Origin: a bacterium | GTDB taxonomy: Bacteria > Patescibacteriota > Minisyncoccia > 2-02-FULL-40-12 > IGHO2-12-FULL-4 | DNA length: 64,000 bases | Reading direction: 5' to 3' | Assembly: GCA_030647955.1 (NCBI GenBank) | Contig: JAUSIQ010000004.1 | Location: 36,533 to 100,532 of the forward strand | In this document: one piece after another, positions 48,812-56,649 of the stretch | How the letters are laid out: every line of letters starts with the position of its first letter | Numbering within the stretch: position 1 is the stretch's first letter | The notes under the pieces: generated by a model | Databases searched by the model: none | The model's input: the letters and a program-made list of their open reading frames with translations, nothing else | Told to the model about the DNA's origin: nothing | Translations under genes and position numbers: made by a program

Positions 48812-49207
48812 ATGCATTTCATGGACACAACCAAGAAGAAGATATTAATTGTTGATGACGATGCCAGTATTACAGAAATTTTTACTGATAAACTAGTGGC
48901 GAGCGGTTTTTCGGTTCTAGTGGCTCGAGATGGAGAAAGTGGCTTGAGCTTGGCTTTGCATGAGCATCCGGATTTGGTTTTTTTGGATATCTTGATGCCC
49001 AAGATGGATGGTCTAGCCGTGCTGAAGGAATTAAAAAAAGACGACTGGGGGCAGATGGTGCCAATTTTCATGTTGACTAATATCGGAGAAACGGAGAAAA
49101 TATCGGAAGCCCTCAATGACAAGGTCACCGGCTATTTTATTAAAGGCACCACGGAGCTGGATGAAATCGTGGGAGTAGCGAGGACCACATTGGGGCTAGC
49201 GAGCTAA
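48812..49207 (+). CDS. Stand-alone response-regulator receiver domain (CheY-like)
   Basis: KILIVDDDASITEIF...DLVFLDILMPKMDG...MLT. Extended -10 TGGTATAAT sits immediately 5', so the gene is possibly leaderless from ATG 48821. Confidence 0.8.
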   Translation: MHFMDTTKKKILIVDDDASITEIFTDKLVASGFSVLVARDGESGLSLALHEHPDLVFLDILMPKMDGLAVLKELKKDDWGQMVPIFMLTNIGETEKISEALNDKVTGYFIKGTTELDEIVGVARTTLGLAS

Positions 49208-49818
49208 TGGATCTCAAATCTACTTACAACCGAATCGCGGAGGATTGGTATAAAGAGCACTCCGATGATACATTTGGGAAACCGATGGCCGACAAGTTTG
49301 CGGCGCTGCTTCATCCTGGCGATAGTGTTTTGGATGTAGGATGTGGAGCGGGGACAAAAGCGAAGTATCTGACCAAACATGGTCTAAAGGTAACGGGCAT
49401 TGATTTTTCAGATAAACTTTTGGCTATCGCGATGCGAGAAGTTCCGGAGAGTCGTTTCATTTTGATGGACATGCACGAGGTAGATCAGCTGGTAGAAACA
49501 TTTGATGGGATTTTTCTCAGTGCGGTATTATTGCATGAACCCAAAGATCGTTTTCGTGAAACTTTGGGCTCTATGCTGACACGTTTGAAATCTGGCGGTT
49601 ACGTTTTTATCACCCTAAAAGAAAAACCGCTGGGCAAGAAAGACGAGGAAACCGAGGTAGAGCATGATTATGGCTACGAATACCGAAGATTTTTTAGTTA
49701 TTATACTTCCGATGAGATTAAGGAGCACTGCGAGGCATTGGGGCTGGAGATAGTAAGTCTGGAAACAGTGGATAGCGGAAAAAGGAACTGGATCTTTGTT
49801 ATTGCTAAAAAAACATAA
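49207..49818 (+). CDS. Class I SAM-dependent methyltransferase
   Basis: VLDVGCGAGTKAKYL motif I. Overlap with upstream and downstream genes is TAATG. Confidence 0.75.
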   Translation: MDLKSTYNRIAEDWYKEHSDDTFGKPMADKFAALLHPGDSVLDVGCGAGTKAKYLTKHGLKVTGIDFSDKLLAIAMREVPESRFILMDMHEVDQLVETFDGIFLSAVLLHEPKDRFRETLGSMLTRLKSGGYVFITLKEKPLGKKDEETEVEHDYGYEYRRFFSYYTSDEIKEHCEALGLEIVSLETVDSGKRNWIFVIAKKT

Positions 49819-50531
49819 TGCCTAAATTAATTTTCGACATTGAGACGATTGGAGAAGACTTTGATCGACTGGACGATACTACCCAGGAAATTTTGACGCG
49901 CTGGATTAAAAAAGAATCGGATGGAGAACCGGAATACCAAACCGCTCTGGAAGAATTAAAAAACGGGATGGGTTTCTCGCCGCTGACCGGAGAGATCGTG
50001 GCTATCGGAGTTTTAGACTCAGAAAAGGATAAAGGCGTGGTCTATTATCAGCATCCCGGAAAAGAAGGGGAAGAATCTGAAGAGGATGGGATTAAGTTTA
50101 AGGCGATGAGCGAAAAAGAAATGCTTGAGAAGTTCTGGGAAGGAGCCAAAAGTTACGATGAATTTGTTACATTTAATGGCCGGGGTTTTGATGTGACGTT
50201 TATTATGGTGCGTTCGGCGGTACATGGTATTCGTCCAAGCAAGGATCTGCTTTCTAATCGTTATCTATCGTTACAGAAATTTGGCTCGAAGCATGTCGAC
50301 TTGCTCGATCAGCTTTCTTTTTACGGAGCAGTCTATCGCAACAAAGGTAACTTGCACATGTGGACGCGGGCTTTTGGTATCACTAGTCCGAAAGCGGGCG
50401 GCGTGACCGGGGATGATGTCGGTCGTCTTTTTAAGGAAGGGGAGTTCTTGAAGATTGCTCAATACAATGTCGGAGACCTTCGGGCTACTCGAGATCTTTA
50501 TCGTACGTGGGAAGAGTATTTGCGGTTTTAA
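49818..50531 (+). CDS. RNase H-like 3'-5' exonuclease (DEDDy, PolB-exonuclease-related / YprB-like)
   Basis: Exo I LIFDIETIG. Exo II FNGRGFDVTFI. Exo III YNVGDLRATRDLY. Confidence 0.6.
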   Translation: MPKLIFDIETIGEDFDRLDDTTQEILTRWIKKESDGEPEYQTALEELKNGMGFSPLTGEIVAIGVLDSEKDKGVVYYQHPGKEGEESEEDGIKFKAMSEKEMLEKFWEGAKSYDEFVTFNGRGFDVTFIMVRSAVHGIRPSKDLLSNRYLSLQKFGSKHVDLLDQLSFYGAVYRNKGNLHMWTRAFGITSPKAGGVTGDDVGRLFKEGEFLKIAQYNVGDLRATRDLYRTWEEYLRF

Positions 50532-50584
50532 GATAATGTAGTACGGTAGTAGTAGATACTTAAAAACAAAGAGAGGAGGGCGTT

Positions 50585-50929
50585 ATGGCAGGCTTTATTG
50601 TTGTTTTTATTTTTATCTTTTGCGCCTTCCTGGCTATGGGGTTTATATCAAGGCGGCGATGGAAGCGTGGACCGGCGATAGTAATTGTAATAACCGATCG
50701 TGCTTATCGGGCCGGATATGATTCGGTCAAGATGGGTTTTCAGGAAATAAACTTTAAGAACATGCCGGTTAGTGGTAGGCAAACTGCTAGAGACTTAAAA
50801 GTATACGAAGAGCATTATTTAAAAGGACGAGCGGCGGCTCTTGCGGAAGTGGCGCAAGAGACGAAGCCTACTCCTCCCTCGCCTCAACAAGGCAAGGATA
50901 AGCGAGGTGTATTGAGACGCATAAAATAA
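50585..50929 (+). CDS. Hypothetical small membrane protein
   Basis: N-terminal TM helix FIVVFIFIFCAFLAMGFI. Basic/Pro-rich tail. Terminator at 50945-50972. Confidence 0.35.
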   Translation: MAGFIVVFIFIFCAFLAMGFISRRRWKRGPAIVIVITDRAYRAGYDSVKMGFQEINFKNMPVSGRQTARDLKVYEEHYLKGRAAALAEVAQETKPTPPSPQQGKDKRGVLRRIK

Positions 50930-50944
50930 TTTGCATAAAAAAAC

Positions 50945-50972
50945 GGAGCATCGCGGGATGCTCCTTTAAAAT
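50945..50972 (+). terminator. Rho-independent terminator
   Basis: GGAGCATCgcggGATGCTCC followed by TTTAAAAT. Confidence 0.6.
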
Positions 50973-54823: not shown

Positions 54824-54911
54824 CCGCTCCGGCGGTTTTTTTGTTACATTTGACAATTTTTAAAATCTGTTTAATACTAGTGTCATTATTCTAATATGAC
54901 GGGAGGTAAGG

Positions 54912-55415
54912 ATGGCCAGTGAAGAAGCGATAAAAAGCAAAAAGAGTTCCCAAGCAAGTAAAATAGAGATGGAGACCTTGAGGGAATTACTTCCGGTGCC
55001 GATATTAAAAGGTCTTATCGGTAAGGTGATGAGCTGTTCTGAGGATATGCTGGTAAGCAAAGTAAAAGCTATTAGTGAAAATATTATTCTTTGGTGGAAT
55101 GGTATATTGACTGATGCTGCAAAGACAAGCGCGGATGGAATAATCCAAGTGGGGATCTTCTTGTTGCCTTGTGATATAGAGGATGAATGGTGGAAAGATA
55201 TATGGGCCTTACATAAGGCTGGCCTCAATGAGCTAATTGATAATCATGATCGTTTTGTTGTTTTACACTGCTTTCTTTCCAATACGAGAACATATCTAGA
55301 CATCTGTGGCGAAATCCATCTTCCCAACGGAGGAGTTATTTTTAATAATGGTATGGGAGAAAAATATTACCGTTGGAATGGCAATCACAATGTTAAGTCA
55401 CAGAGGGTTCATTAA
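54912..55415 (+). CDS. Hypothetical protein (167 aa)
   Basis: ORF with GGGAGG RBS. No recognisable motifs. Confidence 0.35.
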   Translation: MASEEAIKSKKSSQASKIEMETLRELLPVPILKGLIGKVMSCSEDMLVSKVKAISENIILWWNGILTDAAKTSADGIIQVGIFLLPCDIEDEWWKDIWALHKAGLNELIDNHDRFVVLHCFLSNTRTYLDICGEIHLPNGGVIFNNGMGEKYYRWNGNHNVKSQRVH

Positions 55416-55443
55416 CCCTCTTTATTTTTGATAATATAAGGCT

Positions 55444-55833
55444 ATGTTATACAAGAAGCCTAAAAATGATCATAAGTACGAATGGACCAATCACGTCGTC
55501 GGTAAGATGGCGCATTATGGCATCTCGGAAAGTTTGATTAAGCGGGTTGTGAGATTTCCCAAGAGAGTGGAAGAGGGGATTGCGCCGGGAACGACGGCAT
55601 GTATGTCGCCATACGGAACCCCTACTAAAGATAAACGCCAGCCGTATCGGGGAGAGGTGTGGGTGATGTATGTCGCAATGGGTCGCAAGTCAACCATTGG
55701 CAATAAACAGTTAGCTATCAGTCATCAGCAAAAGAAAAGAATTATCACTACTTGGCGGTATCCCGGCGTTAGTCGGGCGGGGGCTAGTATTCCCATTCCG
55801 GACGAAATTTTGGCGGAAATCGAGAATCTCTAG
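55444..55833 (+). CDS. Hypothetical protein (129 aa), possibly DUF4258-like
   Basis: HVVGKMAHYGISESLIKRVV resembles the HAxERMxERGIxxxEI N-terminal pattern of DUF4258 proteins (weak). Confidence 0.3.
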   Translation: MLYKKPKNDHKYEWTNHVVGKMAHYGISESLIKRVVRFPKRVEEGIAPGTTACMSPYGTPTKDKRQPYRGEVWVMYVAMGRKSTIGNKQLAISHQQKKRIITTWRYPGVSRAGASIPIPDEILAEIENL

Positions 55834-55893
55834 AATTGCGGGATTTTAATTCCGATCAAAATTTTGGTATAATGAATTCTATAAAATACTTCT

Positions 55894-56649
55894 ATGGCTT
55901 TTGAAAAAGAACTACAAACTTTAGGACTTTCTGAAAAAGAATCGGCCGTATATCTGGCCGCTTTAGAATTGGGTCCGGAGACGGCACAAAACTTGGCTAA
56001 AAAAGCGGGGATTAACCGTCCGACCACTTACGTCCAAATCGAATTATTGAAACAAAAAGGCTTGATGAGTGAGGTGATGCAAGGAAAGAAGACTTTGTAT
56101 GTGGCCGAATCTCCGGAGAGAATCGAAAGTCTTTTGAATAACTTTGAAAAAGAATTAGAGTTCAAGCGCGCGGAGGTAGCTAGAATTTTACCCGGCTTAA
56201 GTGAGCTGTTTTCAACTGCCGGAGGAACCAGGCCAAAGGTACGCTTTTTTGAAAGCAAGGAAGCGACCGCCGCTTTAACGGCCGAATATTTAAACGTCAA
56301 AGATAAAAAAATTGAGTCCATTATTAATCTTGATCGGGTCATGGAAGTATTTCCTGGGCATCAAGATGACTATAGTCCTAAAAGAATTAAAAAGGGGATT
56401 AAAGGCTTTTTGATTTACACTCGTAAGGAAGGCCCGATGCCAGAGTTGAATGACCCAGCCAAGTTGCGCGAAGCTCGTTACATTGCTCCGGAAAATTTGC
56501 CCATCTCTGCTGATATCGATATTTACGATGACAAAGTAGCTATTTCGACCTATCACAAGGAAAAACCGATCAGTGTTTTGATTGAAAGTCATGACATCGC
56601 CCAAACCATGCGGGGGATTTTCTACTTTATTTGGGGCACTCTCAAATAG
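55894..56649 (+). CDS. TrmB-family transcriptional regulator
   Basis: N-terminal winged HTH LGLSEKESAVYLAALELGPETAQNLAKKAGINRPTTYVQIELLKQKGL. The C-terminal domain is of TrmB length. Confidence 0.65.
   Translation: MAFEKELQTLGLSEKESAVYLAALELGPETAQNLAKKAGINRPTTYVQIELLKQKGLMSEVMQGKKTLYVAESPERIESLLNNFEKELEFKRAEVARILPGLSELFSTAGGTRPKVRFFESKEATAALTAEYLNVKDKKIESIINLDRVMEVFPGHQDDYSPKRIKKGIKGFLIYTRKEGPMPELNDPAKLREARYIAPENLPISADIDIYDDKVAISTYHKEKPISVLIESHDIAQTMRGIFYFIWGTLK

Follow-up and report, generated by a model that had tools for sequence, protein, structure and literature searches.

We analysed a 64,000-nucleotide (nt) stretch of contig JAUSIQ010000004.1 (assembly GCA_030647955.1, positions 36,533 to 100,532), referred to below as the window, in which closely spaced open reading frames (ORFs) on the plus strand at 47.9-56.7 kb encode a helicase-nuclease, two exonucleases, a TrmB-type regulator and several other proteins. 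This region is probably a chromosomal housekeeping mosaic of a Patescibacteria genome, and neither a defence system nor one co-regulated repair operon. The functional core of the mosaic is the helicase-nuclease of 1042 amino acids (aa), and the density of nucleases would be due in part to adjacency that was inherited and in part to accretion within a variable slot. The components are all of known kinds. What is new is a Cap18-family exonuclease that is joined to a helicase-nuclease outside the cyclic oligonucleotide-based antiphage signalling system (CBASS), together with a core protein family that has a modelled RelE/BrnT fold and no antitoxin.

An earlier note on this DNA had suggested either an anti-phage defence island or a compact recombination-repair cluster. 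All of the ORFs that it had listed beforehand were recovered at the same coordinates, and its domain calls held in Pfam, PADLOC and PDB matches, including those of the helicase-nuclease, the DEDDh exonuclease, the TrmB-type regulator, and the translationally coupled receiver, methyltransferase and DEDDy exonuclease. Genes of DNA-nuclease superfamilies account for 5 of about 24 ORFs at 46-64 kb and for none of the 37 ORFs upstream (Fisher p = 0.007, a rough, post hoc value against the within-window background only). The G+C content (GC) of the genes considered here, 0.39-0.49, is unremarkable beside the window mean of 0.444. A PHROGs scan returned generic polymerase-exonuclease families only, and therefore gave no sign of a prophage. 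A search of the literature on Patescibacteria repair pathways found nothing specific.

Conservation of the neighbourhood

Synteny was read from contigs carrying homologues of the window's proteins. The comparison set consisted of eight related Patescibacteria loci, four of them close (L002-L005), two intermediate (L007 and L008) and two distant (L009 and L010); the named relatives include Yanofskybacteria and Paceibacterota metagenome-assembled genomes (MAGs). In the close loci, secA is followed at some distance by the gene of a PolB-exo2-type DEDDy exonuclease, one variable gene, the helicase-nuclease gene, the gene of a 129-aa protein, none to two small genes, a peptidyl-prolyl isomerase (PPIase) gene and the gene of a Cas4-like nuclease with an RNase-H-like domain (Cas4/RNase-H), and then by SecD, SecF, sigma70, DUF8128 and TrwB-like ATPase genes. 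L005 deviates upstream, where it has no PolB-exo2 gene. Identities to the window's proteins in the close loci are 57-68% for the helicase-nuclease, 55-68% for the 129-aa protein and 69-87% for Cas4/RNase-H, and the PolB-exo2 orthologues of L002, L003 and L004, whose genes precede that of the helicase-nuclease, are 73-76% identical.

The cyclophilin-type PPIase gene (61512-62201, plus strand; Pro_isomerase 5e-48) belongs to the backbone and delimits the variable region on its far side, and it is syntenic in L002-L004, L007, L008 and L009. A 131-aa protein encoded upstream of it has weak homologues in L003 and L005. The Cas4/RNase-H gene (62678-64000, plus strand), also part of the backbone, runs beyond the window end, and its window fragment matches PADLOC Cas4 models at 7e-10. 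Its orthologues in L002-L004, L007 and L008 are 64-87% identical, carry both Cas_Cas4 and RNase_H_2, and are followed by secD-secF, which bears out the earlier call of a second, TM0106-type RecB nuclease at 62678; the protein is Cas4-like.

The intermediate loci keep the backbone, with SecA, one to three unrelated genes, the 129-aa gene, PPIase, Cas4/RNase-H and SecDF in this order, and both the helicase-nuclease and PolB-exo2 are absent from the secA slot of these Yanofskybacteria-type loci. In the distant loci, helicase-nuclease orthologues of 46-47% identity were found amid unrelated genes of housekeeping type: obg, RRM and PPIase genes (L009), and bipA, prfB and ftsEX (L010). The earlier note had named conservation of the block next to core genes in relatives as evidence that would speak against defence. 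Such conservation, near secA, the PPIase gene and secDF, was largely found for the key genes, namely those of the helicase-nuclease, the DEDDy exonuclease, the 129-aa protein and the Cas4/RNase-H nuclease.

Other genes of the block behave differently. In the window, the cargo of the slot, from the interval 46013-47307 downstream of secA and onward, consists of a Phd-ParE pair, two minus-strand ORFs, PyrF and an endonuclease/exonuclease/phosphatase (EEP) family protein. The slots of L002-L004, L007 and L008 hold NUDIX, AIRS, peptidase M3, Fic, HATPase_c_2 and CTP_transf_like genes instead, and therefore the slot between secA and the 129-aa gene is variable and accepts cargo. At this place, the four close loci have nothing that corresponds to the receiver, the methyltransferase, the EEP protein, PyrF, Phd-ParE, a 167-aa ORF or the TrmB regulator. 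The receiver, the methyltransferase, the 167-aa orphan ORF (ORFan) and TrmB are probably cargo, with no demonstrable link to the nucleases. The Phd/RelE-type toxin-antitoxin (TA) pair at 46.0-46.6 kb was recognised by PhdYeFM and ParE_toxin matches; the two further ORFs at 46.6-47.2 kb that had been thought TA-like matched nothing in Pfam or PADLOC.

The comparison divides the region into three layers. An old backbone runs from S30AE and SecA across the variable slot to the 129-aa protein, the 131-aa protein in some loci, PPIase, Cas4/RNase-H, SecD, SecF and sigma70. PolB-exo2 and the helicase-nuclease occupy the slot as a second, clade-level layer, of genes that would serve housekeeping DNA maintenance. 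The third would consist of recent additions: the Cap18-family exonuclease, the receiver, the methyltransferase, the 167-aa ORFan, and TrmB with the DNA downstream of it.

The L007 locus (Yanofskybacteria MAG GCA_016181175.1) also has, at 11119-11826, an extra gene for a 235-aa PDDEXK_1 nuclease between PPIase and Cas4/RNase-H, and this part of the backbone has thus acquired nuclease genes in further lineages as well.

A single-chain helicase-nuclease

The helicase-nuclease gene (51020-54148, plus strand) encodes an N-terminal superfamily 1A (SF1A) motor of the PcrA/UvrD type and a C-terminal PD-(D/E)XK nuclease of the RecB/AddB type, with four invariant cysteines (Pfam: UvrD-helicase 1e-64, UvrD_C 3e-42, PDDEXK_1 8e-28). 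An exact look-up of the protein found no record, and its homologues include a 100% identical NCBI MAG protein on a 104-kb contig. Among the best 120 homologues, all are about 990-1090 aa long except one truncated entry of 683 aa (P0022). UvrD-helicase and UvrD_C were found in 120 of 120, and PDDEXK_1 in all but P0022. The homologues with names are assigned to the Patescibacteria group, Parcubacteria, Colwellbacteria or unclassified MAGs. In an alignment of 119 homologues, the ATPase motifs GPGTGKT and DEHQD and the nuclease residues D914, D929-Y-K931 and Q954..Y958 are conserved, and C797, C1025, C1030 and C1033 are 100% conserved. A Pro/Ser/Gly-rich low-complexity insertion of about 50 residues within UvrD_C (residues 647-696, positions 52958-53107) is not conserved among the 119.

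The domain order, a UvrD-like SF1A motor followed by a RecB-family PD-(D/E)XK nuclease, is shared with AddA, AdnB and RecB, and similarity to AdnB (6ppu_B, 5e-27), AddA (3u44_A, 2e-23) and RecB is significant. However, the protein is about 200 residues shorter than AddA or RecB and its helicase core is nearer to PcrA/UvrD than to AddA. The nearest solved structure is PcrA (1pjr, 4e-66), followed by UvrD, AdnB and AddA, and Joint Genome Institute annotations name the orthologues PcrA or helicase II, whereas PcrA and UvrD do not have the extra C-terminal nuclease domain of about 270 aa. Scores against the NCBIfam equivalog models lie far under their cutoffs (addA_Gpos 152 against 708 bits, addA_alphas 170 against 861, recB 165 against 696), and the PcrA model TIGR01073 gave 357 bits against a cutoff of 911. 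The nuclease domain alone had no match among PDB sequences, and a scan of genome contigs with the helicase-nuclease as the query returned only an unrelated Bacteroidales UvrD fragment. No gene for a partner of the AddB, AdnA, RecC or RecD type flanks the helicase-nuclease in the window or in L002-L005, L009 and L010.

Based on these comparisons, the protein appears to be a single-chain motor-nuclease resembling AddA or AdnB, with an iron-sulphur (Fe-S) staple in the style of AddB, Cas4 and Dna2. The four cysteines bracket the nuclease domain, an arrangement that we take to be like the Fe-S 'iron staple' of AddB-, Cas4- and Dna2-type nucleases, and by analogy with AddAB, AdnAB and RecBCD they would hold an Fe-S cluster. 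The enzyme would load at DNA ends or nicks, translocate in the 3'->5' direction and cut the unwound strand. The outcome would be end resection or the processing of forks or plasmids, in a genome that encodes no AddB- or AdnA-like partner nearby. Alternatively, it could act like a PcrA with a built-in nuclease. The PolB-exo2 protein and the Cas4/RNase-H fusion would be further maintenance nucleases, each transcribed independently.

A Cap18-family exonuclease next to the helicase-nuclease

The gene directly downstream (54176-54823, plus strand) encodes a Cap18-family DEDDh 3'-5' exonuclease of 215 aa, with a TTG start that has AAGGAG 6 nt upstream. The protein matched the PADLOC model PDLC00753 'Effector/Exonuclease' (7.8e-25) and the PDB entry 7t2s (2.5e-12), which is the CBASS-associated 3'-5' exonuclease Cap18 of E. 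coli (PMC11981726; see also bioRxiv 10.1101/2022.01.04.474952). It had no match in Pfam, where PF16473 (Rv2179c-like) was not reached at E < 0.1, and one of its homologues carries PF16473. The residues D13, E15, D140, H192 and D197 do not vary within its small family, and on this basis the protein was assigned to the DEDDh exonucleases.

A word-indexed search found six close homologues. The exonuclease gene lies directly after the helicase-nuclease gene in three Patescibacteria lineages: across a gap of 27 nt in the window, 15 nt after the 3' end of a gene for a 74%-identical helicase-nuclease in L012/L013 (exonuclease 69% identical), and with a 14-nt overlap onto the 3' end of that gene in L005 (53% identical). 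Because the 27-nt spacer contains a Shine-Dalgarno sequence and a terminator follows the exonuclease, the two genes are predicted to be co-transcribed. This pair is the only part of the block that behaves as a linked unit. The exonuclease is nevertheless accessory, because the helicase-nucleases of L002-L004, which are equally close relatives, are without it. In a cooperation of the two, the exonuclease would trim the 3' tails or the short oligonucleotides that the motor-nuclease leaves behind, like ExoI beside RecBCD.

The exonuclease shares the DEDDh set and sequence similarity with CBASS Cap18. An alignment-based scan of metagenome contigs found 80 more distant relatives (25-46% identical), and no helicase-nuclease homologue was near any of the 80. 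They stand beside Cap17-like, TRIP13, HORMA and cyclase genes, whereas the exonuclease of the window adjoins the helicase-nuclease, and no CBASS cyclase, HORMA, TRIP13 or Cap17 gene was found anywhere in the window. Short dinucleotide intermediates with a 2'-5' linkage are substrates of CBASS Exo/Cap18 enzymes (bioRxiv 10.1101/2025.03.04.641389), and therefore the family need not be one of bulk DNA exonucleases.

The pair might accordingly be taken for a new two-gene module of a Patescibacteria subclade, in which a co-opted CBASS accessory exonuclease works with a motor-nuclease; jointly with this, its role might be the restriction of foreign DNA, as in Nhi or Gabija, or the degradation of signalling or short nucleotides from DNA degradation. 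The tight adjacency in three lineages, the retention of all DEDDh residues and the activity of CBASS Exo/Cap18 on dinucleotide intermediates favour such a module. However, the helicase-nucleases of L002, L003 and L004 evidently dispense with the exonuclease, the 47%-identical exonuclease of L011 has no helicase beside it, and with six close homologues only, the association rests on few genomes. Adjacency alone is also no proof of a physical or functional link. We consider the module, together with its proposed role, unlikely.

The 129-aa backbone protein

The protein encoded at 55444-55833 (plus strand) has 353 homologues, and those with names include Yanofskybacteria, Paceibacterota, Parcubacteria and Patescibacteria-group MAGs. 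A structure model built from 48 sequences (predicted local distance difference test score, pLDDT, 82; predicted TM-score 0.76) gives it a RelE/BrnT-like fold. Residues invariant in the family include K21, K33, R37, R41, E43, E71 and R105-Y106, as well as a C-terminal IPIPxxIL helix. DUF4258 matched below the Pfam gathering score (E 0.0066, 17.2 against 25 bits), and this sub-threshold match recurred in 15 of 48 family members. Neither this protein nor the 167-aa one had a match above threshold in Pfam, NCBIfam, PADLOC or PHROGs.

The protein exceeds the BrnT, RelE and ParE toxins by 30-40 residues and has an internal loop that varies as well as the invariant C-terminal helix. The TA modules of these toxins are mobile, whereas the 129-aa gene is fixed in the housekeeping backbone of all eight relatives' loci that hold it. 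It lies upstream of the PPIase gene, adjacent or one to two small genes apart, in the 7 loci that are long enough. Its own upstream neighbour varies with the locus and may be the helicase, the exonuclease, the 167-aa ORFan, a 186-aa protein or a 100-aa protein, and no conserved antitoxin-like neighbour was found in the compared loci. Because it is a fixed backbone gene whose upstream neighbour differs from locus to locus, we did not file it as a TA toxin. Of the earlier description as a DUF4258 toxin-like protein, the fold was upheld; the DUF4258 assignment stayed below its cutoff and the toxin role was not borne out.

A bolder combination of these elements is that in one subclade a Cap18-family exonuclease was captured by a helicase-nuclease operon, that the two act as a two-component machine against invading linear DNA or clear short oligonucleotides, and that the 129-aa protein is a domesticated, antitoxin-free core ribonuclease. 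We regard it as distinctly unlikely. If true, the machine would have a minimal RecBCD-like or Nhi-like immunity function, or would clear the oligonucleotides of the motor-nuclease.

The question of defence

If the region were a defence island, it would be a hotspot for defence in which the helicase-nuclease and the exonucleases, with the toxin-like protein and the regulator, make up at least one immune system. Several observations fit this proposal: the slot beside secA varies between relatives and takes TA and Fic-type cargo, the DEDDh exonuclease is a member of the Cap18 family, which is associated with CBASS, the 129-aa protein has the fold of RelE/BrnT toxins in its model, and the helicase-nuclease is matched by PADLOC helicase models, GajB among them. 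However, no complete defence system was found in the window with the PADLOC-DB v2 hidden Markov models (the program's own system rules were not applied), and there is no cyclase, HORMA, TRIP13, Cap17 or GajA. Defence genes are typically patchy in distribution, whereas relatives keep the helicase-nuclease, PolB-exo2 and the 129-aa protein among housekeeping genes at 46-76% identity, and the 129-aa gene is without a conserved antitoxin-like neighbour. Hence the suggestion of a defence island was not sustained, and we consider it very unlikely.

The PADLOC matches were generic, and partner proteins did not turn up. GajB models hit the UvrD core, SduA and PD-T4-6 the receiver, mad2 the methyltransferase fold, Csa3/CasR the helix-turn-helix (HTH) region and Cas4 the downstream nuclease. 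As evidence for defence, the GajB, SduA, mad2 and Csa3 matches were ruled out, as each covers a generic domain only.

Gabija deserves separate comparison. A UvrD-like SF1 helicase is common to GajB, Nhi and the protein studied here, and PADLOC GajB models match the helicase-nuclease at up to 2e-83. These models match any UvrD-like helicase, though, and the helicase-nuclease scores higher against PcrA (the 357 bits given above). Only about 85 residues aligned with the solved GajB (1e-7), and the partner of Gabija, the OLD/TOPRIM ATPase-nuclease GajA, is not encoded beside the helicase-nuclease. Unlike Gabija and Nhi, the helicase-nuclease has a vertical, housekeeping distribution.

Predicted transcription units

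Consensus scans predicted about five units, suggesting that the block consists of several units and is not one operon. The first would contain the receiver, the methyltransferase, PolB-exo2 and a small membrane protein, and end at a terminator-like, G+C-rich hairpin (50945-50964) that has T/A runs on both sides and separates the small membrane gene from the helicase-nuclease gene. The second would pair the helicase-nuclease with the Cap18-like exonuclease and end at an intrinsic-terminator-like hairpin with a T-run (54822-54837, plus strand), followed by a promoter-like site at 54850-54878. The 167-aa ORF would be the third, up to a terminator-like hairpin at 55402-55421, the 129-aa gene alone the fourth, and the TrmB gene the fifth, up to a palindrome at 56668-56703.

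That the receiver, the methyltransferase, both exonucleases, the helicase-nuclease and TrmB jointly form a dedicated, co-regulated recombination-repair operon, a substitute for AddAB, is highly improbable. In its favour, all of the genes are on the plus strand with short gaps, the receiver, the methyltransferase and PolB-exo2 are translationally coupled, and since no AddB/RecC-type partner was seen a single-chain enzyme with helper exonucleases is plausible. Against it, hairpin-terminators and promoter-like sites divide the block, the receiver, the methyltransferase, the 167-aa ORF and TrmB are absent here in every related locus, PolB-exo2 comes after a peptidase or NUDIX gene in relatives, the helicase-nuclease is unlinked from all the others in distant relatives, and the promoter that the palindrome by the TrmB gene overlaps is directed away from the nuclease genes. 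The description as a compact recombination-repair cluster was therefore nearer the truth than that as a defence island, and was overstated with regard to about five units, a helicase-nuclease found elsewhere in distant relatives and cargo genes that are not conserved.

Some points weigh against the housekeeping mosaic as a reading of the region. The synteny sample is small and its loci were picked partly by how long their contigs were, the promoter and terminator calls are consensus matches only, and a helicase-nuclease elsewhere in the genomes of L007 and L008 could not be confirmed. The slot, with its accessory or defence-flavoured cargo (Phd-ParE here; Fic, HATPase_c_2 and NUDIX in relatives), behaves like an integration hotspot. 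The distant relatives of the exonuclease are overwhelmingly embedded in CBASS: 27 of the 90 scanned neighbour genes are Cap17-like_N and 11-12 of 90 are TRIP13/AAA, and a HORMA protein and oligonucleotide cyclases are also among the 90.

Other genes of the block

The EEP family protein (260 aa; 47978-48760, plus strand; Pfam Exo_endo_phos 3e-11) precedes the first unit and had no tblastn match in L002-L013. A stand-alone CheY-like receiver of 131 aa (48812-49207, plus strand; Response_reg 3e-21) follows. Next to it lies the gene of a class-I S-adenosylmethionine-dependent methyltransferase of 203 aa (49207-49818, plus strand; Methyltransf_23 2e-18, with matches to Methyltransf_23/25/11 at 1e-15 to 1e-18). 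Neither has a counterpart in the relatives' loci, and both are strain-specific at this position. The methyltransferase appears to be of the small-molecule type: a DNA-methylase model gave 0.042 only, and NCBIfam matches were all far under their cutoffs. Accordingly, a restriction-modification component was ruled out.

The PolB-exo2 gene (237 aa; 49818-50531, plus strand) matched PF10108 DNA_pol_B_exo2 at 1.8e-18, with 67.4 bits against a cutoff of 24, as well as RNase_H_2 in Pfam. The motifs D-x-E, N-x2-F-D and Y-x3-D are present as FDIETIG, FNGRGFD and YNVGD. Because Exo II and Exo III (FNGRGFD and YNVGD) align with those of archaeal family-B polymerases, the protein was classified as a DEDDy 3'-5' exonuclease; it has the exonuclease motifs in common with these polymerases, but their polymerase domain is absent here. 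To our knowledge, the cellular role of the stand-alone PF10108 family is uncharacterised. The junctions between the receiver and the methyltransferase and between the methyltransferase and PolB-exo2 are both TAATG overlaps, and the three genes are therefore considered translationally coupled.

Between PolB-exo2 and the helicase-nuclease, at the variable position, lies the gene of the small membrane protein (114 aa, with one N-terminal hydrophobic helix; 50585-50929, plus strand), which had no family match in Pfam, NCBIfam, PADLOC or PHROGs. A weak homologue occurs in L005 (33% over 66 aa), and in L002-L004 the position is taken by an HATPase_c_2 protein, a 485-aa protein, or a 185-aa protein with Fic.

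The 167-aa ORFan (54912-55415, plus strand) has its own promoter-like site and a GGGAGG ribosome-binding site. In an exhaustive HMMER search of 1.84 billion representatives it matched only itself and three long repetitive proteins with no informative Pfam domain, and it had no Pfam match at all. An identical copy is present in L006, which comes from another sample. A single-sequence AlphaFold2 model (pLDDT 36.6) was not usable.

The TrmB regulator and the DNA downstream of it

At 55894-56649 (plus strand), with TGGTATAAT upstream, lies the gene of a 251-aa winged-helix regulator of the TrmB family, which matched the TrmB HTH at 2e-13 (50.5 bits against a cutoff of 25.6). Residues 80-251 had no Pfam match, so that a sugar-sensing C-terminal domain was not recognised there, and the NCBIfam scores (TrmBL1 37 against 650 bits, TrmB 33 against 600 bits) are far under the equivalog level. 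No homologue was found in L002-L013. The TrmB gene opens an insertion of about 5 kb (55.9-60.9 kb) that is specific to the strain and separates the 129-aa gene from the 131-aa and PPIase genes, and the strain- or subclade-specific layer extends about 4.3 kb past TrmB.

The TrmB gene ends at a perfect palindrome of 16-17 bp with a T-run (56668-56703, plus strand; CAAGAGGATTGTCAAAT / ATTTGACAATCCTCTTG), which would serve as its terminator. The palindrome has TTGACA boxes on both strands, and its 3' arm holds the -35 box of a promoter at 56689-56717; it resembles the operator of an HTH protein that binds as a dimer, and it overlaps the -35 of a downstream RNA promoter. Since the palindrome overlaps that -35, TrmB may regulate the downstream RNA rather than the nucleases. 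A half-site of 86% similarity is found at 57574-57594.

Two stretches downstream of TrmB are candidates for new structured RNAs. The first (56689-57050, plus strand) begins with a sigma-70 promoter that matches the consensus at 12 of 12 positions (TTGACA-17-TATAAT), contains about 325 nt without a credible ORF (GC 0.51, fold z-score -6.66), and ends in a long G+C-rich hairpin with a U-run (about 56982-57048). The second (57199-57780, plus strand) has an 11/12 promoter at 57199-57227, followed by about 550 ORF-poor nt with many perfect hairpins (GC 0.50, z = -7.21). A coding control gave a fold z-score of -2.29, and the GC of about 0.50 in both stretches compares with 0.42 for the TrmB gene. 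Neither had an Rfam match, and the second had no relative in viral or phage collections. In the whole window, no Rfam family reached its gathering score and E <= 1 gave nothing real; no tRNA or transfer-messenger RNA (tmRNA) was found in the 64 kb.

Further downstream, two copies (84% identical) of a self-palindromic 79-nt element, at 57783-57861 and 58571-58649, flank a 59%-GC ORF of 129 aa (57945-58334) with an AAGGAG ribosome-binding site. Together they may be a small mobile cassette or one like a miniature inverted-repeat transposable element. The window has no further copy of the element, and no viral or metagenome contig matched its 23-nt core pattern exactly. Searches of viral and metagenome collections and phage records returned nothing for the element, for an RNA hairpin or for the flanked ORF, which had no homologue there. 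A 308-aa ORF at 58705-59631 probably starts near 59020. Its first approximately 100 codons overlap other ORFs and the flank of the second palindromic element, and only its C-terminal part gave a weak, sub-threshold NUDIX match (E 0.001, 19.5 against 21.1 bits). A perfect 17-bp G+C-rich hairpin (60356-60390; CCCCGGCCTATGCCGCG/CGCGGCATAGGCCGGGG) lies in an ORF-less gap of 520 nt (60023-60545), and Rfam gave it a chance-level tfoR match only (E 0.74). At the other side of the window, positions 1-43236 encode enzymes of sugar-nucleotide and surface-polysaccharide synthesis, including GDP-mannose dehydratase, epimerases, NeuB, a DegT aminotransferase, a carbamoyltransferase, glycosyltransferases and an ABC-2 exporter.

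Implications

No single point here is surprising enough alone to rank highly. The analysis removes a false lead, as a dense run of nucleases and helicases in a reduced Patescibacteria genome can be inherited synteny plus accretion in a variable slot. The family of the 129-aa protein is a core, antitoxin-less family with a predicted RelE/BrnT fold, and the occurrence of a Cap18-type exonuclease outside CBASS bears on the function of that exonuclease family. With one architecture and invariant catalytic residues across the examined Patescibacteria homologues, and no partner nearby, the helicase-nuclease is the obvious candidate for end processing in these bacteria.

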